A DNA stretch of 63,296 nucleotides, filler included, from Bonamia ostreae (GCA_040357525.1; 36 parts of 36 records of this genome joined end to end with filler, not necessarily neighbours in it), one strand, 5' to 3'; shown: positions 10,431 through 53,062, counted from the first letter of the whole stretch. The notes: a model not told the origin generated them from the letters alone. Translations and numbers: made by a program.

Positions 10431-10829
10431 GTTTTCTTTGTGAAAAGATAAATGGTCCCTTCGTTTTTAGACCAATCAATTATTAAATGCCTTAAAACTA
10501 CTTTGAACTCATTTTCTTTATTCANNNNNNNNNNNNNNNNNNNNNNNNNNNNNNNNNNNNNNNNNNNNTTAATTAATTAANNNNNNNNNNNNNNNNNNNN
10601 NNNNNNNNNNNNNNNNNNNNNNNNAACTTCGAAAACGAAGCGTCGACATCCCGCAAAGGATGAAATAGAAAGTGGAGAAACCAAATCTTCATTCTCTAAA
10701 AATAATCTAAATGGATTTCAATTATTTCATCTTTGTCGTTTAAAAAAAGACGCTTCTTTTCCGAAGATATGTCGTTTAAAAAATCTCTAACGATATAAAT
10801 GCGCATCTAAAAAATCACAACCGAAAAAT

Positions 10830-11799
10830 TTAATCCATATAATCACTCGCGACGAAAATATCTTTACTGACATAATACTTTTTCAACAATTCGTCGTTCA
10901 CAGTCCACGTAAATCTTTAAACGAACCGAGTAAAAATATTCAAACATTTGCAAATCCTCTTTTTTAAAACGAGCAATATCGGACGGCGACAATAGTTCGT
11001 GGTTTGGGCCGATCATTGTAGCGCCGACCAGAAACGAAAAGATCTCTTTGCTCATGTACATCAGCAAAATATCGAACGGATAGACGAGATATTTCAAGAC
11101 TTAAATTTTGCTTTTAAAACAATAATGATATTTGTGATCTGCGATTAAGCATCTAAGATGATCGTCAGTGTAGTTAAGACACACTTCTACTTCCGGCATT
11201 ATCTTTCTTATCTTAATTTTATCTTTATGGTAAAAACTTGGTATAAAGGAATGGGCCAAAACGAAATGAAAATCACGTTTTCGATTTTCGAATGCGTTTT
11301 AACCAAGTCGATCATGTTTTCCACCATTAATTTTGAGCAAGAAAAGCCCTTTATTTCAATAAAGAGCTTTAAATTTTTTTCGTTGCATTTGACAAGTGCA
11401 TTTTTTAGTGTTGCAATGCTTTTTCCGTTATTATATTTTTTCAGAATTAAATCTTTGTAATCGCAGTCGTTTATAAGACTAGTGTCTTAAGTTGTATTGA
11501 AAACCATTTTCATCAAACGCCTTCATCGATTTGTGGTGTAACAAGACGGGAATTCCGTCTTTTGTCTCCTGCACGTCAATTTCTATTGCTTTGAACCCCA
11601 AACAACTTCCCTTTTCAATGGACTCGACCGTGTTTTCGACAACACCGGGGATTCTGCAACCTCTAAACGGTTGCGGTGAAAACCTGTGACCGACATTTAA
11701 AGTGCCCCATTTTTTCGTGTAAACATTTTTAGGTCGATTTTGAAATAATTTTCTTATTAAGAACATTGTTGATATTGATATCAAGAAGACATAAAACAT
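10830..11799 (-). CDS. Glycerophosphodiester phosphodiesterase (GDE1-like) with N-terminal anchor
   Basis: GHRG (after removing 21-nt intron 11663-11683), ENT, IEIDVQETKDGIPVLLH; WTVND restored by a 31-nt intron; TAA at 10830-10832. Confidence 0.9.
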
Positions 11800-17696: not shown

Positions 17697-19144
17697 ATGG
17701 TTTCCATGAGTTGTTAGCGCTTTTAGGAGAAGCACTGTTATTCATCTGTTTATTACTACTTCTTCTTTTATGCTTTAGATATTGCAGAAATCGGCAGAAA
17801 CAGCCGGTTTACTGTTACGATTCAGTTCAACCAAGCGATATCATTATTGCGGAACACCCCATTCAAAAATGTTTTTTTCTAAAAATGTTAGTTTCATTGT
17901 CTCAACCCGCACCAATCCCTTTCCAAAAATACAATGTGCGTCCTACTACAATTAAAAAAAAATTGAAACATAATCCTCTTACCAATCTCATAAAGACTGC
18001 AGCCACAAAAACGGGGATTTTCGAGAAAGAAAATTCTGTTGTTAAGATGCCACCTTTCTATCACAAAATGAATAAGCTGCAGATTTTAATCGATTTGTAC
18101 AATGAAACATTAAATGAAAATCTATCTTTTAATAAAACAGCGAAAATTCTTGGTGAGGAAATTAGATACGGCATCAAAGTTATCACTTTCAACACTTGTT
18201 TGAACAAAATTTCTAATGATTTCGAATCTTTGTTTTTGGAAAAACGGGACCTTTATGTTGTAGGGCTGCAGCAAGTCCCAAATATAACTAATTTGAATGA
18301 AAATATCTTAGAATCGATTAAAAAGAATCACGGCAGCGACATTTTCAGTTTAGTTTTTAGCTGCGTTAGCGATAAAACAGCATTGCTGGTCTTTGCTTCA
18401 GAAAGAATGGAACATGAAATAAGTAATGTCGAAATGAGAAAAATCGGGAAAAATGTGGCACTCAGGATGTCAGTTGGGGATTCTACTCTTTGTTTGGTAA
18501 CTTCTGAATTCGATAGTCAAGGAGCTATTGGAGTAGAGAACGTACTAAGAAATATTAAATTTCCGAAAACGCTTTGGGATCTCAAAAAGGATAAAATTTT
18601 CGAAAGCGAGTTTTATAAATTTGATTACAACAATTTAAATTGTTAAATTAAAAATTGAAGCACTGTCATTTGGTTTGGCGACTTTAATTGCCGTTTGAAT
18701 CCCGATGAAAATATATTCGACAAAATCAATGAAGCAAGAAACAATTTGAATAATAATAAATTTGAAAAGCTTCTATGGAATGAACAAGTTTTTTTTGCAA
18801 ATTTCAGTTGTTACAACAAAAAGTGGGGCATTTAAAAAACTTCAAAGAAGCAAATATTTCTTTTGCGCCGACCTTTAAGTACGATCTCAATACAAATAAA
18901 TACGATGAAAGGTTTGGTTTTAGTAAAGAATAGTGATTCTCCGGGGTGGTGTGACCGTATTCTGTACTTTTCTGAAAGACTGGAGCCCTCGAACTACAAA
19001 TCTGTACTTAATATAAGAAATAGTTATCATAGACCTGTTTCAATAAATTTCGATTATACGATTCAATTTTTCGACGAAAAATACGACCGATATTGTGACA
19101 TGTTGAGAGACAAAATAAAGAACAACAAACAGGTTATTGATTAA
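17697..19144 (+). CDS. Transmembrane inositol polyphosphate 5-phosphatase-like protein (5' truncated, degenerate active site)
   Basis: TM LLFICLLLLLLLCF; DLYVVGLQQ, VIWFGDFNCRL, FAPTFKYD, PGWCDRILY, SYHRPV. Introns include 17871-17891, 18788-18807 and 18912-18933. Confidence 0.85.
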
Positions 19145-20120: not shown

Positions 20121-20237
20121 TCGAGAATAGAATTTAAAGCTTGTGATATAAATTTTTATTTTATCGAGTTTTCTTATTCGTCAAATTATTTTAAATTTAA
20201 AATATATTTTATATCACAAATTTTGACAAAATCAAGA

Positions 20238-20310
20238 GCCCTGTTAGCTCAGCTGGTAGAGTATTAGATTCTTAATTTAGTGGTCGCGGGTTCGAGTCCC
20301 GTACAGGGCT
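20238..20310 (+). tRNA. tRNA-Lys(CTT)
   Basis: GCCCTGT/ACAGGGC acceptor stem, TAGCTCAGCTGGTAGAG D-arm, TTAGA-TTCTTAA-TTTAG anticodon arm, GGTTCGAGTCCC T-arm, followed by an oligo-T terminator. Confidence 0.96.
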
Positions 20311-20355
20311 TTTTATAGTTTATTTTTTATTACTTTTTTTGGATATAATAAAAAT

Positions 20356-35128: not shown

Positions 35129-35506
35129 TCTGTTTTGTTAAAATTACTGATATAATTTTTTTAGTAAAAGATTTAAATTTCTCCATTCTTTCGACCGGGC
35201 TTCCTTCTCCGCAGAAAATTTGNNNNNNNNNNNNNNNNNNNNNNNNNNNNNNNNNNNNNNNNNNNNTTAATTAATTAANNNNNNNNNNNNNNNNNNNNNN
35301 NNNNNNNNNNNNNNNNNNNNNNGTTCGTCCATTATTTGATTTTGAGTTCGTCGATTATTTTAGAGATTGTCCATTATTTGTGAGTCCTTCCATTATCGTC
35401 ATTATTTGCGAGTCCGTCTCCACTAAAACCTTCCATTTTAAAACGGTCAAACTTAAATCTGAAAAACCTCCCATTCTTAAAAACCGTCTAACGCTTTCCC
35501 AAACAG

Positions 35507-36981
35507 ATCGAAGGCGACGAGCCGTGCGTCCTCATAACGACCTATTCGATGCTGGCCTTTTCCCAGCGCCGCTCCAAAGAGTCTCAGAAAATGATCGAAT
35601 CCGTTCGCTCGCGCGAATGGGGGCTCCTCATTTTGGACGAAGTCCACGTCGCCCCTGCGGACATGTTCAGACGCTGCCTCAACGTGGCCAAGTCCAAGTG
35701 CAAACTTGGACTGACCGCCACTCTTCTCAGGGAAGACGCAAAAATTTCCGATTTGGTAAAATAATAAAAATAACAAAATCGACAAAAACAATAAAATCGA
35801 TAAAATCGACAAAAACAATAAAATCGTCTAAAACAATAAAATCGATAAAATCGGCAAAAATAAAAAAAAATCGGCAAAAACAAAATCGACAAAAACAATA
35901 AAATCGTCAAAAACAAAAAAATCGTCAAAAACAAAATCGACAAAAATAAAAAAATCAGCAAAAACAAAATCGACAAAAACAATAAAATCGTCAAAAATAA
36001 AAAAAGTCGTCAAAAACAATGAAAATCGTCAAAAACAAAAAAATCGACAAAAACAATAAAATCAGCAAAAACAATAAAATCGTCAAAAACAAAAAAATCG
36101 ACAAATTTAGTCTTTCCTCGTCGGCCCGAAACTGTTCGAGGCGGACTGGCTCGAGCTCCAACGACAACGCTACCTCGCCACCGTGCGCTGCGTGGAGATC
36201 TGGTGCCCTCTCGACCCCCTCTTCTGCAGACAGTACATCCTCCAGCGCTCCACCAACCGGCGCAACCTCCTCCAGACGATGAACCCGTCCAAATTCAGAG
36301 TCTGCGAACACCTCATCCGGCTCCACGAGGAACGCGGCGACAAGATAATGGTCTTCTCCGACAACATCTTCTCGCTCAAGAAGTACGCCGTCATCCTGGG
36401 GAAGCCTTTCATCTACGGCCGCACCTCGGAAGCAGAACGGCTGGCTACGCTGAAGTCGCTGCAGGAAGACGACGAGATGAGCACCGTTTTCATCTCGAAG
36501 ATCGGCGACTGCTCGATCGATTTGCCCGACGTCAACGTGGTCATCCAGATTTCCTCCCACTTTTCGTCGCGCCGCCAAGAAGCGCAGCGGCTGGGTCGGA
36601 TCCTGCGACCGAAAGCGCGCAGCGACGCGAGCGCGCATTTCTACACGTTGGTTTCGGAGGACACAGATGAATGCGTGTACGCGGCGAGGAGGCAGCGGTT
36701 TCTGATAGACCAGGGCTACATGTTCGAGGTGAAGAATGGCGGAGGACTGGAGGGGGGCTTTTTCGAGGACGAGAAGACGAAGAAGGGTTTGCTGAAGGAG
36801 GTAATGGCTGTTTCTGAGAAGGTTGATTTTACAAAATTTTCAAATTGTAGCTTGGCAGTATTGAATCCGACATCGAAGACTTTGAGAAGACGAAGACACC
36901 GAAAATCAAAAAAGGGAAAAAGACAAAATTTAAATCGGAAAAAATGAAGAAAATTAAAGAATCGATTTTGCGCAGAAAGAG
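35507..36981 (+). CDS. ERCC3: TFIIH helicase XPB/Ssl2, 3' part
   Basis: TTYSML, EWGLLILDEVH, KLGLTATLLRED, MNPSKF, DKIMVFSDN, SRRQEAQRLGRILRPK, RQRFLIDQGY; repeat intron 35756-36109. Confidence 0.96.
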
Positions 36982-37081: not shown

Positions 37082-37886
37082 AGCCTGTATTATGTCTTCG
37101 TATTATTAAATTTTAAAGTCGGGAGTTTTGCCACAGAATTAAATCAGTGTCAGTATCAACTTTCACCCAAAAAGAAGTTGATGCTTTAGTGAAAGGGGGC
37201 AACAGAGTTTCATTCAGTTAATTAAAAGAAATCGAACGAGTACTTTTTGAAAAATTACAATAGGAAAAGTTATTTTGCGCCGAACCCGGGGGACATCAGT
37301 CGCATCCGCAAATGGATACGTTTTCAAAACTTCATGTGAAGGGATGAAATATGTAGACCGAACATGGGCGAGCAAGACAGAAAAAGATTACTTCGAATCT
37401 TCCAGAAAAAGAGAAGAGATTGAAGCTTCCGAAAATAAACCAAAAGCTTCGATGAAACAAAAAGAACGAAATACCGGAAAAGAAAGAAATTCCAAATCAT
37501 CTGAAGAAAAAATAATAAAAGTGGAGAAGGTCGAAAAAAAGGAAGACAATCTTATTGATTTGAACGACATCTTCTCCTCTCAAAACAATACTAAAGACGT
37601 CAAACCGAATGGGGCGATTGATGGGGAAAATTTTGATTTCAACAGTTCAAAGAATTTGCTCGGCGACGAAAAAAACAGCGCAGAAAATTTGAGCCAATTG
37701 GTCAACAACATAAATTTGATGGATAAAAAACCGGGACAAGAATTGCAGAAAGAAGAAAAAGTTTGCAAAGTCAAAGATCCCTTTAGAGATCTTTTCGAGT
37801 TATCGATGGCCAAGAGCGAATTTGACAGAAAGTCTGTGAGTAAAAAGACGGTTGACGAAAAAGAGGATGCTTTGTTAAAATTTTAA
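37082..37886 (+). CDS. ArfGAP (AGFG-like) protein, 3' part
   Basis: REFCHRIKSVSVSTFTQKEV..GGN, IRKWIRMKYVDRTW after tiny introns; NLIDL and DPF motifs in the tail. Confidence 0.85.
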
Positions 37887-37920
37887 TGTGCTTTTGTCAT
37901 TTAACTGTTATTTTAAAATT

Positions 37921-38030
37921 GCCAGTGCTTCGTACTAAGTGCTCGCATTCATGCATGCATTGGTTCGAATCCCGGTTCTGTCGTTTCCAAATTGATGTCT
38001 TGCCAACAACTTCGGGACAGATGGAGCTTG
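37921..38030 (+). other. Conserved non-coding two-motif element, copy 1 (tRNA/B-box-like)
   Basis: GGTTCGAATCCC-GGTTC-TGTCGTTTCCAAA (to 37991) followed by CAACTT-N5-CAGATGG (38007-38024); both motifs recur at 43650-43714. Confidence 0.55.
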
Positions 38031-40596
38031 TTTAAGAAAAATAGTGCTTTCCTCAAATACTCGTTGTGTGAAAAGAGGATGAAACCTCCATTCACATTTT
38101 ATGCTCAGCCGGTCTAAATCCAGCATTAAAGTTATGGAGACGGGCCTCCCTCAGAGTCATTAGTTTTCCCTCCCAGACTCGGCTCACTTTTAGTGAACTC
38201 GGCTCATTTAAAAAATGGCAGAAAGCAGCATATGCGCAATGCGTTTATTTTGTTAAGTTTTAGTTGTGTTTCTAGGCTTAAATGGGCTTAGTCTTAAGGA
38301 AAAATAGTCGATTTTCTTTAAATTAAAGAGAATTGTGTTCAAAAGCCCGTTATCATTTAATAAACACGTCGTTCCAAATTTCCAAAATAATAGTGCACCT
38401 TTGAAAATGTAAAAAATTAATGTTTGGAAAAATCAAAATTCGATCCAATGTTTGAAAAGACATCCAAAAGCTTACGAGCAAAATGATGAAATATTAGACA
38501 CATTCACGATTTTAATATAAAAATCGAATTCCAATACAAACGAATCGAATTCCAATAGTCAGCAACCTTCTTCTTTGAAAAAATAGAGTCTGATAAAAGG
38601 CAAATCCAAAACTTCAAATAAATGATTTCTTTATACAACAGAATGTATATATTTAACGTGTAAAAGAAACATGACGGAAGAAAGATTAAATGTCTACTTT
38701 GAGGAAAATTAATTACTGAATAATGAGTTTATATACAAANNNNNNNNNNNNNNNNNNNNNNNNNNNNNNNNNNNNNNNNNNNNTTAATTAATTAANNNNN
38801 NNNNNNNNNNNNNNNNNNNNNNNNNNNNNNNNNNNNNNNATGTCGAGTTGAAGGCCACAGCATGTACATTCGTGCATCACAGTGTACATGTGTATAATAC
38901 ATTAAACCGTTTGGGATTTTAAACCAAATGCATATTCCAAATCAATGTATCCAAAATGAAATATTTACATGTAATTTGATAATAAATAATGATTAAGAAT
39001 TTTTATTTGAAAATTTGTTAATGATATATTTGTACAGGTGGACTGTCACCTAAGCAACTCTTGGTGTTTCGGTCACCTCATACCTACTTTAGAAAATGCT
39101 ACCACTCCAGTTGAAATGATATATTAACAACAAATAATTTAGTCAAATGCCCCAATACATTTAACAAAGCATGTTGAATTCATATTAGTCAAAAAGGTAC
39201 ACATACGTAAAGTAGATCGTATAATTTGAAAGTTTGTTTCAAAATCTCCTATCAATAAATAAATCTCCCAAAACAAGGAAACAAAGAATCCCTACGGCTT
39301 TTGGTGGTAATCTTTCACCGATCAAATAGCTTGACCCTTGTAAAATTGAAAGAAACCTTAGTGATGTGGACTGTAGTCAAGGCACCTGTTTGATGTAAAG
39401 AAAAAAACAGAGATTGTCACAATAACATGTTGGAAAAAGGTATTTTGAAAGATGTGACCCAAATTTTGTAGAATAATCTCCACTTTGGCCAACGCTAAAA
39501 TAATTCAAGATGGCACTGACACTTATATTAGTGAAGAGGCTACAAGAAATGATATATCATTTGAAAGACCCTGAAGTCCTTGTTCATATCTCTGCCAAAC
39601 TTGGAGATTTGTAAATTTGCCACAAAGAACAACTTCAGCATTTGATGAGTAATTATCCTTCAATTTCTTAGGATGCAACAACATAGAACAATGCTGCTTG
39701 TTATAATGTTTAAGTTAGTGACGCCCTGTCTATCAAGTAGTCTTATTATCGATAGTAATCGGTATTGTCCCACATTATTTGGATCCTATGTGACAACAAT
39801 TTCAACTCCATATTTTAACGATTTCAATTGAGTGCAAGATACGCAACCCATCGAGTCCATTCGTTGTCTTTACAATGATTTTGATTTGTATCTTTCATGA
39901 GTAATATACATTTGCTTATATATGTTAGGTGATTTAACTTTCCTTAAACATTCTGTAAAATATCGCTGCCTCCATGTGTAATTCATGCATTAATGTACAT
40001 GAGGAATTCTGAATAATTTTTGTTTTGTTTCAGGTTCCAGCTCTGCCTCAGAAAACGATAATTCAACACAAACACGTAATGATCTATTCTGATGATTGAT
40101 ATACGATAACCATATTTTCAAAATACTAATGGGTTTACTATATACTCATTACAGATTATGTAAGAGCAATGGCCGAACGGTTTGAAAAGAAGGTAGACAG
40201 AGAAGATCGACCTTTGCATCCAATAACTGTGCCATTTAAACCAGACGTTAGAGCGAAAACACAAGGTTAATCATTTATCAATTCCGTAATAAACATAGCA
40301 CTGAAATTTTGCATCACTGTAATGTTGATATCGGCGGGTGTTTACTAAAATTAGAAGAGATTGTATAATGTAGAATATAGAAGTAATACATTCGCCATTA
40401 CATTTTTTATTCAAATATCTCTCTCGCAAACATCTCTGACAAATCATAATGAATCATAACAAAACTATAGATTATATATAGCAAATATATACAATCNNNN
40501 NNNNNNNNNNNNNNNNNNNNNNNNNNNNNNNNNNNNNNNNTTAATTAATTAANNNNNNNNNNNNNNNNNNNNNNNNNNNNNNNNNNNNNNNNNNNN

Positions 40597-41109
40597 ATAT
40601 CGTGTTGGTCTAACATTTAAAAATTGTTTAAAACAAATATTCGTTCGTTTTTATTATTGCGGGAGGATTTTTTATCGTCTGTTTTGTGTTTTCGGGGATA
40701 TTTAAAAATGTTTTTATGCGACTCAACGTCTTTATAAAAAAATTTTGCAAAGAAATTTTTGGTATCAAAAAAATTTTATCAAAAAAATAAAATTTGGACC
40801 ATTAGAATAAATGTTGCTATTAAAAAGTTCTTCAATTCTGTCGGATAATCTTGCACTTCTTTTTCTGGATTTTCTGGTTTCCTTAGGGCCATTTGAAATA
40901 TTTTTCTATTTTAAAGAGCATTTAATAATTGCCAAATTTAATGACAGATTCAAAATTCGACATTTGAAAAATGAAAATTTAATGACCAAATAATCATTTC
41001 TGCGTTCAACATTGGATTTTGTATCCGTCGCTGGCGGTTTTTTGTTCTCAATCTTTTGTTTTCTATGATGTTTACAATATAACTTGTTTTTTTCGATCGC
41101 GGTAGACAT
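40597..41109 (-). CDS. 5' part of unknown basic protist protein
   Basis: MSTAIEKNKLYCKHHRKQK..., continued over short introns. Confidence 0.45.
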
Positions 41110-41429
41110 TAGTAAAATTTAGTATGTTTAAATTTTTTATATCCGAAAATGTTTAAGTTGATTTTAGACAAAAATAAATTATTTAAATGTTTGAAGTGAG
41201 TTGCAAATCATTTTAATTCAAAATTAATGTTGCAATTCATTTTTGAAAATTGACTAAACACATTTTAGCGTTTGTGAATATAATTATTTTGATTTATCAA
41301 GCTTAAAAAATGGCAAGATTTATTTTCAAATTTTTAATAATATCAGAAAATGTGCGATTTCAGGATAAATTTTTAAAATTAGCAATTCGAGATTTTGTAA
41401 AATAAATTTTAAAAATTTACTAAAACAAA

Positions 41430-41900
41430 ATGGAAAACACTGAAGAAATACTCGAAAACAAAGTTGAATACGAAGAAAAAAACGATTCGTTAAATCGCAT
41501 TAGCCAAAACGAACCCGATTTTGAAAAGAAACAAGAAAATAAAAATCTTTTGACTTTAATGCTCGCAAAAGAATTGGAAAAAAGAAATTTAGAGCCGAAA
41601 AAATTATCGCCTAAAACAGAAAAAATTTTGCCAAAAACAGAAAACAACGGAAATTTGGACGCTTTTTTAAACGAAAGCGCAGCGAAAAGTCACAAAAACA
41701 TAAAATTTAAAACGTTCAAATTTGAATGTGACAAAAGAGCGAAAAATAGAAAATCGTTTTATAAGCCAAAATTGAAAATTGCAAAAACTAAAAATATCAA
41801 AATTTTGACCGTTTCGAAGCCATTTAAGTTTCTGACCGAAATCAGAGCGCGTAAAAGAGTGAAAGATAAAATGACTTTCAAAAGAATGTGGAAAAATTAA
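41430..41900 (+). CDS. Intronless 156-aa protein with TPX2-like motif
   Basis: C-terminal LTVSKPFKFLTEIRARKR and FKFECDKRA resemble TPX2-type repeats. Confidence 0.55.
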   Translation: MENTEEILENKVEYEEKNDSLNRISQNEPDFEKKQENKNLLTLMLAKELEKRNLEPKKLSPKTEKILPKTENNGNLDAFLNESAAKSHKNIKFKTFKFECDKRAKNRKSFYKPKLKIAKTKNIKILTVSKPFKFLTEIRARKRVKDKMTFKRMWKN

Positions 41901-42027
41901 ATAATGTAATTTTATTATTTTCGAAAATCATTTTTAGCAATGTCTAATTTTTTGAAAAAGCTTATAAAAATTATAATTATATCAAAAAAATATAATTCCA
42001 AAATTAGCAATTTACTGTTTTTGGAGC

Positions 42028-42208
42028 ATGAAACGTAAAATCAATTTGAATCGAAAAACGACTGTAAACCCGCTTACACAAAAACCGTTTTCGCAAAAGT
42101 ACTTCGAAATTCTTCAGAAAAGAAAAACGCTTCCTGTTTGGGAGCAAAAAGACGAATTTTTATCATTGGTAAAAGAAAACAAAAATATTGTTTTGATGGG
42201 CGAAACAG
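42028..42208 (+). CDS. DHX15: DEAH helicase Prp43/DHX15, exon 1
   Basis: NPLTQKPFSQKYFEILQKRKTLPVWEQKDEF...VLMGETG. Confidence 0.9.
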
Positions 42209-42353
42209 GTTTAAGTGGATAAAATCGAAAATACAAATTGTACTTTAAAATGTNNNNNNNNNNNNNNNNNNNNNNNNNNNNNNNNNNNNNNNNNNNNTTA
42301 ATTAATTAANNNNNNNNNNNNNNNNNNNNNNNNNNNNNNNNNNNNNNNNNNNN

Positions 42354-43622
42354 GCAAACCTTCAACCTTCACGGGCGCCAAAATTCGCCTTGTCCTGGAT
42401 ATCACTAATCACGGATAAGCGCTTATTGTGCCCAGTGCTCCGCTCCGAAGGCGCCGCACAAAAGTGCAAATTCCATCTCGTCAAATTGCTCTGCGCCGCT
42501 TTCGCTTTTATCGAACCGCTCTTCCTCTTCCGACAATACGACGAACCGCTCGGAGCGTTGTGCCAAGGACTATTGCGTGTTCTGACGATGCTCTCGCAAA
42601 ACTTCCCGTCTTTCCTCTCCGAGTTCAACTTCGACCTGGCCACCGCTCTGCCCCCGAAGTGCTTCCAGCTGCGCAACGTGGTGCTCTCGGCAGTGCCGGT
42701 CGGGACCAACCCGATCCTGTACAGATACAACGACCCCAATTCGCTGCTCGAGCCAGGGCCGCCTGCGGCCCCGCGCTGGGAAACAGTGGTCACTCGGTTC
42801 AAGGGGCTGAAGACGGCCTTGGACCAGTACTTGTCTCTGGTCGCGACGAGCGCCGCAGCGGCGAATGCGTTTCTGCCGGAGGCCTACTTTGAAGACTTGG
42901 ACTTGATTTTGTGCGATAGAGCCAAAAAGACCGCGCGCGGCGGCGACCGCGACGTCAAGCCGAACCGAAGTGCGGCGGCGAAAGGGAGAAGCGGTTCAAG
43001 GAAGGAATACAATCGGAGGGCGATTTGCACTTTGGCGGCGTATTTTGGTGACAAAGGGATGTCGGCGATGCGGCGGGCGATGAGCAGCGCGAACGCGCCG
43101 ACGACGAATGCTCTGGACAGAATCTTCCTTTTTTTCGGGCACCTGCTGGCAGCGATGGAGCCGCAAGGGCGGTATCTGCTGGTAGCGGCCCTCTTGAACC
43201 AGCTGCGGTATCACAGCTCGCACACGCATGTTTTTAGTCTGGTGGTGTTGCAGCTCTACGGGAATGCTCCGGATTGCGAGTCGCGGGAGATAATCGTAAG
43301 GTTGGCATCAATGTTCGAAGAAGCGATTTTAATATGAAATTTTATTTTGGTCCATTTGGCCGATAAAATTTATCGATAAAATATTGTGTTAACAAAGAGC
43401 CATGTTGGAGAGACTGGCGCCGAACGGACCACATCCGGCGGGACTGGTCTCTGTTTTCGTGGAATTGGTGCGGAATCCTTTCTACAATTTGAATGCGCAC
43501 TGTTTCGGAGGAAGCAATCCGTCTGCTTTGTAGTTTTGAATTTGAATTTTAGTATTTTTAAGTCGCTGGTTGCGAGATTTGTCCCGGAATTGTCAAACGA
43601 GCGAGAAATCGCAGCGAAGTAG
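42354..43622 (+). CDS. CNOT1: CCR4-NOT subunit 1, C-terminal domain
   Basis: PSRAPKFALSWISLI, FPSFLSEF, CFQLRNVVLSA, RYLL..LLNQLRYHSSHTHVFS, MLERL..GPHPAGL. Confidence 0.92.
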
Positions 43623-43647
43623 TTTTTGTATGAAATAAATTAATTTG

Positions 43648-43714
43648 TGCAACTTTGCCGCAGATGGCTCTGTTGTTCGAACTAAACTCGAATCCCAGTG
43701 TTGTCGTTTCCAAA
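43648..43714 (+). other. Conserved non-coding two-motif element, copy 2
   Basis: CAACTT-N5-CAGATGG (43650-43667) followed by TCGAATCCC-AGTGT-TGTCGTTTCCAAA (43688-43714). Confidence 0.55.
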
Positions 43715-44145
43715 AACTTAAGTGATTTGTTAAGTGCAGAAGAGTCAGTTTTAAGGTGATTTGTTAAACTGGAAAAAATTTAGCCGTTGGCTCAAAATGG
43801 CGAAGAATAATTAAAAATCGACTGAAACAATTTAAAGGCTCATAAAATTTCGAAGATGAAGATCGATAAATTGGCTATTGCGAATCCAATTATTCCGCCA
43901 ATCATCATCGACTTCAACTTTTTTCCGGGAAAATTTATTTCTTCCATTAACGCGGCAATACTTATCGTTAAAAGAACTGACGTTACTTCATAAAAATTTT
44001 AAAATTGCTNNNNNNNNNNNNNNNNNNNNNNNNNNNNNNNNNNNNNNNNNNNNTTAATTAATTAANNNNNNNNNNNNNNNNNNNNNNNNNNNNNNNNNNN
44101 NNNNNNNNNCAAAAAACCGAATTTTAAAATGGCTCTATTTTAAAA

Positions 44146-51030: not shown

Positions 51031-53062
51031 NNNNNNNNNNNNNNNNNNNNNNNNNNNNNNNNNNNNNNNNNNNNTTAATTAATTAANNNNNNNNNNNNNN
51101 NNNNNNNNNNNNNNNNNNNNNNNNNNNNNNAACTTGTAGGCACAATTCTGACAATGGGGAATCAGTCGATATAGAAATACAAACACCTTTCATATAAACA
51201 GACCCTGAAGCGCACTACAACTTTATGTGAACCTTCGCGGTACGAACTGTTCCGTTTCCATATCAAAATGTTTCCTTTCTACCGTTCATCGTTCTGTTCC
51301 CAAACCAAAGCGTTCTTTTCTCATCTAAAACCGCTCGTTCCCCCAAAGCGTTCATCCCTATATAGCCCTTCGCGTGTCAATCGTCATTGTATGTCAACAT
51401 GGCGCGTTGTTGAGGTGGAAGCTAAAAGACTATCGCTCTTGATTCGACGCTATCTTTTCAGGTTGTGAAAGGCGTACAAAGTTTGAAAATTTCACACTTC
51501 AAATCCAATACAATTTACACTCTAATTAGCAATTCATCTCGACAAGACAGAACATGTTTTTTAAGTTTGTGTAAAATGCGAAGGGATATAGACTTGTTGA
51601 AGAAACAACTAAGGATACTAACTTACTAAAGAAAAAGTAATTGAAATTGTATTATTAAACCAAAAATTGTATAAACATATAAAGAATTAATTACCAAAAA
51701 TGTTACTGTTGATGAAATAAAGACGTTCGTACAGGGGGATTTTTTCATTTATTTATATTTAATAATTTATGTTTTGATTCAATTTTGTTGAAAGGGAATT
51801 TCGAAGCAAACAACCCTTCAAATTATAAAATATTGTCAATACGTATTTTTTGACTGATATGAGTTAGACACGTTTTGATTAAAGTGTTGGAAAATGAAAA
51901 TGAATTACTTATTTGTTTGTCTATCAACTAGTGTGGTGTCGTCTTCAAAAGTCGTTATAAAGTGATCGAGATAACAAGAGTTGCTAAAGGAACTATGTAC
52001 AAGCCGTGGTCTACGGGATAGTGGACACGGAGTACACACTATAGGTTCCCGTTACAAGTAACAGTGTTTTCCTTGATATCCCTTTTTAGAATTTGGCAAG
52101 TGTCTTCAAAACATGCTTAATGTGGGTATACCAAATTGGTATAATTAGGTGTATCAACAATCAACATGATAAGTCTGCATGATAATTAAAATAATGCAGA
52201 TATTCTCCTATCGAATTTAATCGCAAAATAAATCAAGTTTGTATCAAAACTAATTATATTCATCAACTTTTGAATTTAAATTATTAACTGTTAATGGATT
52301 ACATTTATTAATCTATTTCTTTTGCGATACTTTCACTCTGAATGTGCATATGATGACAATTTCTAAATCTTTAACACACTATATACACTGTGGTATACAT
52401 TTGTAATTTACAATTGATTGATAAACAACTGTACTTGTAAAAACTAAATCCGTCGTTAAATTTATCTCGTTAAGTAATCGAAAAAAAATCATAGTTTTTT
52501 TAATGAAGGGTGAGAATGTTATAACTTTAAAATCCGACTTAGAATGACGTAAAGCGATTTTCATTTTTAAATGAAATGTTGTTTTCTAATGCTTGCATTA
52601 GTGAACATACATGGAAATATCCTCATCTGAATCTTAAGGCACCTATAATTATATGTATTGGTTTACTTCCACTCACCCATTCCTTTAATTTCAAAATTTC
52701 GATAATTTTAAAATTTCATTTCGGCCACAAATGGCTCCCTTTCCCGCAATGCCTACATATCAATAAAACGTACCGAAAGTGTCNNNNNNNNNNNNNNNNN
52801 NNNNNNNNNNNNNNNNNNNNNNNNNNNTTAATTAATTAANNNNNNNNNNNNNNNNNNNNNNNNNNNNNNNNNNNNNNNNNNNNTTTAAAGAAAATTGACC
52901 AATTCAATTAAAAATATTGTCATTTTTAAAGAAAATTGTCCAACTCGACTTAAAAGTCGACGCTTCGTTTTCGAAAATATGTCGTTTTTGAACAAAAATT
53001 TATAAAATTTTAAAATGAAAAATTTTGCACAAAAATAATCACAAGAAATAGTCTCAATCTGT

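Follow-up and report, generated by a model that had tools for sequence, protein, structure and literature searches.

A 27-nucleotide box behind two genes of Bonamia ostreae as a possible remnant of a tRNA-related dispersed repeat

A stretch of 63,296 nucleotides from Bonamia ostreae (GCA_040357525.1), referred to here as the window, had been described in a preliminary account as carrying a non-coding element of two motifs, A and B, that occurs twice with the motifs in swapped order. Motif B (hereafter box B) is a real match beyond chance, with exactly two copies in the window. Motif A is a coincidence that is no better than chance. Box B is not an RNA gene: it bears a likeness to the 3' half of a tRNA gene, yet it failed every test of tRNA membership that was run. 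Comparison of the two copies suggests that box B may be a short remnant of a tRNA-related dispersed repeat, a reading to which we give a probability of about 0.4. The principal alternative, a sequence-specific element acting in cis behind the poly(A) sites of a subset of genes, is possible and rather unlikely.

The window is composed of 36 contigs of 1651–1672 bp in order of size, with N44-TTAATTAATTAA-N44 spacers between them, so that distance or synteny across any spacer is meaningless. Without this filler the B. ostreae sequence searched amounts to 59.8 kb, in which the G+C content of the contigs ranges from 25% to 49%. The assembly as a whole comprises 12.24 Mb in 9705 scaffolds (N50 of 1417 bp, 33.3% G+C); annotated repeats make up 4.33% of it, and the median distance between genes is 218 bp (PMC11069148).

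Two close copies of box B

The copies of box B lie on two separate contigs, as had been reported, and are identical at 24 of 27 bases, including all 22 specified bases. Exact blocks of 9 and 13 nt flank a 5-nt gap that holds all three differences. At up to three mismatches the window contained these two matches, and none of 100 shuffles reached that number, which upheld both the coordinates and the identity given for motif B. The next-best match in the window to the 22 specified bases agreed at 16 of them; box B looks like a pair of close copies rather than a degenerate signal family.

Chance similarity was weighed against the background of comparable matches. An all-versus-all scan of the contigs yielded 16 pairs of 27-mers with at least 24 identical positions. 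Eight of these derive from one tandem repeat common to contigs 5 and 18, six are AT-rich (G+C ≤0.15), and the only two with a G+C content of at least 0.44 are box B and another small repeat, which contigs 7 and 31 share. When bases were treated as independent and identically distributed, 0.34 inter-contig pairs were expected over all compositions. That value, the six AT-rich pairs seen at the same level, and the ease of partial matching illustrated by a 16/18 match in a GDPD exon (see below) are what speak for a chance origin. On the other side, only 0.0014 pairs were expected at G+C ≥0.44, BLAST within the window gave the box B pair an E value of 7.9e-5, no shuffle reproduced the pair, and the copies share their strand and their position relative to the upstream genes. 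We consider an accidental resemblance very improbable.

Several further candidates were rejected. A gapped third copy on the minus strand at 11648-11665, GAATCCC-CGG-TGTTGTCG (16/18), was judged a chance match because of its E value of 0.66–0.74 and its location in a coding exon, inside an open reading frame (ORF) with the Pfam GDPD family. The word TTCG[T/A]ACTAA is found upstream of box B in both copies (9/10 bases); it stands at differing distances, about 1.5 occurrences were expected by our estimate, and it was attributed to chance. A 19-base version of box B had one match in viral_contigs (L001), which is not a tRNA, has unrelated flanks and was likewise taken as chance. The full box B pattern had 0 matches in metagenome_contigs and 0 in genome_contigs, and the 22-mer covering the tRNA-like half of copy 1 also had 0 in each; neither collection includes the B. 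ostreae genome. As a separate observation, GTTTGAATCCCG at 18685-18705 (plus strand) carries 11 of 12 bases of the left half of box B without the right half; it is in sense orientation about 45 nt past the stop of a 315-codon ORF (17699-18646), and is probably due to chance.

Motif A is present at the two positions reported for it, but its significance was not confirmed. With up to two mismatches allowed, two or more matches arose in 31 of 100 shuffles. Of 3000 random locus pairs, 20.9% had within their ±80-nt flanks an 18-mer matching at 14 or more of 18 positions, and 41.4% of 3000 scored at least as high as motif A without gaps. Rarity is limited to the exact 6-N5-7 shape, which was seen in 14 of 3000 and had been picked post hoc. 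The proposed pair of motifs in swapped order was therefore dropped along with motif A: the contrast between a B-A and an A-B arrangement disappears, and nothing is permuted.

Likeness to tRNA genes and the dispersed-repeat reading

The tRNA likeness is clearest in copy 1. There a T-loop-like TTCGAAT lies within an exact match (11/11) to the B-box word GGTTCGAATCC at 37962-37972 (the B-box consensus being GGTTCGANTCC), and is followed by CCCGG, a 7-nt strand and then a G at the place of the discriminator base. This is the single exact match to GGTTCGAATCC in the window; the true tRNA-Lys gene has one mismatch to it. B-box-like words with up to two mismatches number 13 in the window, versus 13.2 expected. 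Copy 2 reads AAC where the B-box has GGT, and thus lacks the first three B-box bases, including the equivalent of G53.

Searches for a tRNA or other structured RNA gave no indication of one at either locus. ARAGORN and Rfam at its gathering threshold identified in the window only a tRNA-Lys(CTT) at 20237-20311. A permissive Rfam search of 301 nt around each copy listed nothing relevant at E ≤10, whether tRNA, vault or another family; the E value was multiplied by 4227 families, so a faint tRNA likeness would go unlisted. ARAGORN at default settings found 0 genes on contig 22 and on contig 25. With lowered thresholds and introns allowed it made 3 and 5 long-intron calls on these contigs and 4 on a control contig, the latter consisting of one true tRNA-Lys and three spurious calls; the calls on both box B contigs are noise. 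The T-stem of copy 1 (ATTGG/CCCGG) pairs at 3 of 5 positions and that of copy 2 at none in register, neither copy has a conserved 5' acceptor strand, and no run of four T was found downstream of box B. Copy 1 folded no better than its shuffles (z of -0.18 and +0.61). Copy 2 forms an interrupted hairpin (z of -2.13) whose 3' strand is the left half of box B, with TCGAAT in the stem; this hairpin is without a counterpart in copy 1, and no fold is common to both copies. ARAGORN and Rfam agree with the preliminary description that neither copy folds as a full tRNA. The pairings that it quoted, TTCTGTC with GACAGA and GTTGT with GCAAC, both exist but do not recur between the copies: GACAGA/TCTGTC pairing is confined to copy 1, and pairing between A and B shows no covariation.

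These results lend no support to the proposal that the element represents a circularly permuted tRNA-like or RNA polymerase III (Pol III) non-coding RNA family, given that motif A is a chance match, Rfam lists nothing relevant at E ≤10, ARAGORN returns only noise and the copies share no fold. Permuted tRNA genes occur in red and green algae. Copy 1 resembles them in that a piece like a 3' half precedes a GACAGA able to pair with it; box B differs from them in having no D-arm or anticodon parts, in the failure of the pairing in copy 2, and in that ARAGORN and Infernal find nothing. A broader version, in which the spacer would contain an unannotated gene for a small RNA, with box B as its 3' part and a Pol III transcript that is either tRNA-like or permuted, would account for the B-box-like left half with an acceptor-like strand after it, for TTGCCAGTGC, which weakly resembles an A-box and precedes the B-box of copy 1 by about 43 nt (7/9 specified bases with one gap, by eye), and for the hairpin of copy 2. 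It is opposed by the Rfam and ARAGORN results (relaxed calls being at control level), by the poor T-stems and missing T-run, and by the status of motif A, which would be needed as the 5' half. Moreover, the copies have only 27 nt in common, whereas paralogous RNA genes would share more sequence or fold. Such a gene is hardly to be expected here.

A B-box need not belong to a transcribed gene. Extended B-box motifs that stand in isolation, known as extra TFIIIC (ETC) sites, function as barriers and insulators (PMC12409998), and box B might be a site of this kind, bound by TFIIIC without Pol III transcription and forming a barrier between neighboring genes. In favor of this are the perfect GGTTCGAATCC of copy 1, the place of copy 2 between two transcribed regions that lie about 170 nt apart, and the general picture of a lone B-box-like word that is followed by a conserved extension and lies in a spacer of Pol II genes. 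The likeness is offset by the three B-box bases lacking in copy 2, by conservation that centers on the 13-nt right block outside the B-box, and by the chance frequency of B-box-like words in the window. We regard an ETC-like site as very doubtful.

The reading that we favor is a remnant of a tRNA-related dispersed repeat. The shared stretch would start in the T-loop-like TTCGAAT, continue through the acceptor-like strand and a short trailer, and end in AA. It may have arrived as a small inserted piece bracketed by direct repeats, such as a retro-copy truncated at its 5' end or a fragment captured at a DNA break, and would persist as passive DNA behind a gene, where the spacer is the only neutral space that a compact genome offers. 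Both 24-nt cores are indeed followed by AA, the similarity ends abruptly on both sides, and each copy is bracketed by candidate direct repeats (Table 1). Flanks of either kind were found at 8.5% of 200,000 random sites, or about 0.7% for both copies, under criteria set post hoc. Compared with the 3' half of a tRNA gene, or with a tRNA-derived short interspersed element (SINE) or pseudogene, copy 1 shows TTCGAAT in T-loop register, CCCGG, the 7-nt strand and the G, and both copies have an A-run and candidate short flanking direct repeats. Box B departs from these models in having no cloverleaf, no 5' half and an extra TTT before CCA, and from a SINE in having no common body: its two copies in 59.8 kb share 27 nt and the same start base.

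A number of observations weigh against the dispersed-repeat reading. The flank criteria were chosen after the data had been seen. No longer parent element and no third copy were found, so that the notion of a repeat family rests on two copies. Both begin at the same base, unlike what random 5' truncation would produce, and the three differences all fall in the 5-nt gap, an outcome with an estimated probability of about 5% if differences were random; confinement to the gap looks more like a bipartite binding site. The copies also share their strand and a similar distance from the upstream stop codon (79 and 66 nt). Given the extra TTT between the discriminator-like G and CCA, the piece is no copy of a mature tRNA end, and no real tRNA with the 3' half of copy 1 was found in the window or in genome_contigs and metagenome_contigs, which are without this genome. 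The absence of a parent, the common start, the clustered differences and the extra TTT equally feed the cis-element alternative. The argument from position is weakened, since spacers of about 200 bp are nearly the sole place where such a piece could lie. Of the remaining readings in the preliminary description, two survive for box B alone: the relic of a SINE or other tRNA-related sequence, and a DNA element to which a protein binds.

Position of box B behind gene ends

Copy 2 lies behind a gene on contig 25 for the C-terminal part of the CCR4-Not protein Not1 (CNOT1-like; Pfam PF04054, E of 4.1e-43), whose product is 100% identical to B. ostreae MHBO_003096 (NCBI). The end of its transcript was mapped by a contig from RNA-Seq run X12 that covers 43395-43652 and then continues with 22 A absent from the genome, which leaves a 3' untranslated region (UTR) of 28–30 nt. 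Box B begins 36–38 nt past this poly(A) site and spans 36–63 nt after cleavage. Because the 22-A tail precedes it, copy 2 is outside the mature mRNA, and a tRNA-like leader, one of the readings proposed earlier, is a misfit for this copy.

The next RNA contig spans 43822-44009, leaving a spacer of about 170 nt between transcribed regions, and probably belongs to a convergent gene. The statement that copy 2 sits between convergent genes is plausible in that this RNA contig has an open minus frame, but it is not proven, as the plus frame is open too. No RNA contig was present over 43653-43821 among those listed for X3 and X12; contigs cannot prove absence, and no inference was drawn. In DNA runs X1 and X2 box B of copy 2 is unchanged, and a single-nucleotide polymorphism (SNP) and an indel occur 21–24 nt downstream of it. 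The X1/X2 difference at 43735-43766 reflects either divergence between strains or an artefact of the assembly. The 29-nt gap is flanked by two copies of the direct repeat GTGATTTGTTAA.

The gene upstream of copy 1 on contig 22 has an ArfGAP-like N-terminal exon (by eye). The sequence TTTTAAAATTGCCAG at 37911-37925 resembles, by eye, the sequence before two RNA-contig ends on contig 25; if it marks a cleavage site, box B would lie about 41 nt past it. Both copies are on the sense strand of the upstream gene. The interval of 25–35 nt between stop codon and element in the preliminary description arises only from its arbitrary element starts, whereas box B itself is 79 and 66 nt away.

Table 1. 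Features at and around the two copies of box B, in positions of the window
Feature	Position	Strand	Remarks
Box B, copy 1	37965-37991	+	Contig 22 (37082-38739); starts 79 nt past stop 37884-37886
Box B, copy 2	43688-43714	+	Contig 25 (42354-44009); starts 66 nt past stop 43620-43622
Copy 1 with candidate flanking direct repeats	37959-37996	+	ATTGGT (37959-37964) and ATTGAT (37991-37996), 5/6 bases
Copy 2 with candidate flanking direct repeats	43684-43717	+	AAAC (43684-43687) and AAAC (43714-43717), 4/4 bases
Motif A, copy 1	38007-38024	+	Judged chance match
Motif A, copy 2	43650-43667	+	Judged chance match; its initial CAA is the poly(A) addition site
Interrupted 15-bp hairpin	43663-43705	+	Copy 2 only; z of -2.13, 7/200 shuffles fold as well
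Stop codon TAA of upstream gene, contig 22	37884-37886	+	Annotated P0005 ends ...EDALLKF
97-nt GT..AG intron, Not1	43298-43394	+	Joint 43297>43395 in RNA runs X3 and X12
20-nt GT..AG intron, Not1	43533-43552	+	Omitted in RNA runs X3 and X12; kept in both DNA runs
True stop codon TAG, Not1	43620-43622	+	Annotated P0001 ends ...NEREIAAK (...NPSALYIFKSLVARFVPELSNEREIAAK)
AATAAA hexamer	43634-43639	+	11-13 nt upstream of Not1 cleavage site
Cleavage/poly(A) addition site	43650-43652	+	End of run X12 RNA contig; exact base ambiguous, genome reads CAA
Variable stretch after copy 2	43735-43766		DNA runs X1 and X2: T>G at 43735, 29 nt absent at 43738

These positions bear on the chief alternative to the dispersed-repeat reading, namely that box B acts in cis past the poly(A) site, at the level of either DNA or nascent transcript, as a terminator, a roadblock, an insulator site or a strong downstream element. 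Consistent with such a role are the start of copy 2 at 36–38 nt past a mapped cleavage site, the sense orientation of both copies at 66 and 79 nt past a stop codon, and the by-eye likeness that would put copy 1 at a matching distance. The division into exact blocks of 9 and 13 nt with the three differences inside the 5-nt gap, the GU-rich right block, and the constancy of the box in two DNA runs that differ 21–24 nt downstream point the same way. A precedent for a precise downstream motif exists in Blastocystis, where TGTTTGTT follows the poly(A) site at a distance of 4 nt in about 96% of 2,419 genes (PMC4159000). Against a cis element are the count of just two copies in 60 kb, the lack of degenerate versions, and a distance of 36–60 nt that is farther than that of classical downstream elements. 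In addition, cleavage was mapped for copy 2 alone, and positional agreement within a 217-nt spacer would arise by coincidence with an estimated probability of about 7%.

The comparison with known poly(A) downstream elements, both the mammalian GU-rich element and TGTTTGTT of Blastocystis, is similarly mixed. Box B of copy 2 is like them in lying past the cleavage site and outside the mRNA with a GU-rich right block. Those elements accompany most genes in degenerate form, 4 to about 30 nt past cleavage, whereas box B has two copies in 60 kb, is near-exact over 27 nt and lies 36–63 nt out. A tRNA-like signal can also serve in 3'-end processing, as does the mascRNA of MALAT1. The resemblance there is a tRNA-like sequence near the 3' end of a Pol II transcript; the difference is that here AATAAA-type cleavage and poly(A) addition take place upstream of box B, and the box has no tRNA fold.

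Box B is not a general gene-end signal, at least within the window. Among 250-nt stretches after 57 ORFs of at least 100 amino acids it was found in the locus of copy 1 only, and degenerate copies are absent from the window (next-best 16/22). The 13-nt right block is over-represented at up to two mismatches (13 found versus 5.0 expected, a number that 0 of 100 shuffles reached), and TGTCGTTT was tried as a general signal behind genes. Words like TGTCGTTT showed neither strand nor position bias after ORFs, with 24 sense versus 18 antisense after the 57 ORFs and 13 sense versus 15 antisense after 28 ORFs of at least 150 amino acids, so the candidate was rejected; this lack of gene orientation also counts against a cis element. 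A specific model, in which the box would stand about 40 nt behind cleavage in a subset of genes and a bound protein, possibly TFIIIC by way of the B-box-like half, would stop or insulate Pol II before the neighboring gene, appears improbable to us.

A coding origin was one of the conditions under which the preliminary description would have abandoned a non-coding element, as the copies translate on the minus strand as FGNDRTGIR and FGNDNTGIR. Copy 1 has a minus-strand frame that stays open for 71 codons, and the plus-strand frames of box B read SNPGSVVSK (copy 1) and SNPSVVVSK (copy 2), which is what a protein-coding family on either strand has in its favor. The 71-residue ORF has no homologue among proteins of 39–125 amino acids and no Pfam family. 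In copy 2 FGNDNTGIR lies in a stretch of 11 codons between stops, the frame being closed one codon to either side. The three differences fall at first and second codon positions of the plus frame, and copy 2 is located behind a poly(A) site. The coding reading is already refuted for copy 2, and that both copies are pieces of a coding family is scarcely credible.

Within the Not1 gene, removal of the 20-nt intron converts an apparent TAG stop at 43531-43533 into a Tyr codon, and P0001 reads ...NPSALYIFKSL... across the joint. The evidence for this intron comes from two RNA runs from two studies. A length of 20 nt is near the known lower limit of spliceosomal introns (Stentor, Bigelowiella nucleomorph). 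B. ostreae is said to have canonical introns (PMC11069148).

Other repeats and significance

The second short repeat that is not AT-rich, GTCGACGCTTCGTTTTCGAA..ATATGTCGTTT, is common to contigs 7 and 31 at 10628-10647 (minus strand), 10749-10777 (plus) and 52956-52987 (plus), with an inverted pair about 100 nt apart on contig 7. It holds TTCGAA and TGTCGTTT words like box B, at different spacing. The tandem repeat noted above has units of about 44 nt with 90–96% identity at the end of contig 5 (8611-8752) and the start of contig 18 (30049-30154); these contigs probably abut in the genome, the assembly having broken within the repeat. At 35902-36150, after an ORF at 35323-35901, units like AAATCGACAAAAAC (TGTCGATT on the other strand) recur 4–5 times at a spacing of about 30–80 nt, and this run overlaps a 282-codon minus-strand ORF. 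Runs of at least eight G (or C) number 15, all in two contigs, where 0.85 were expected.

Neither a literature search on the genome of the organism nor passages of PMC11069148 mention anything resembling box B, and the words tRNA and UTR do not occur in the main text of that paper; the literature was not searched for the motif itself. As it stands the finding matters little: it removes the reading as a permuted tRNA-like RNA and leaves one short repeat box. It does provide the first transcript-anchored gene end in B. ostreae, with an AATAAA hexamer, a 3' UTR of 28–30 nt, a spliced 20-nt intron and a spacer of about 170 nt. Should the box prove to keep a constant position past many poly(A) sites, it would offer a handle on how transcription ends in a compact protist genome, and, if the improbable model of a protein bound there were true, a piece of a tRNA promoter would in Rhizaria have been put to new use as a terminator or insulator for Pol II.

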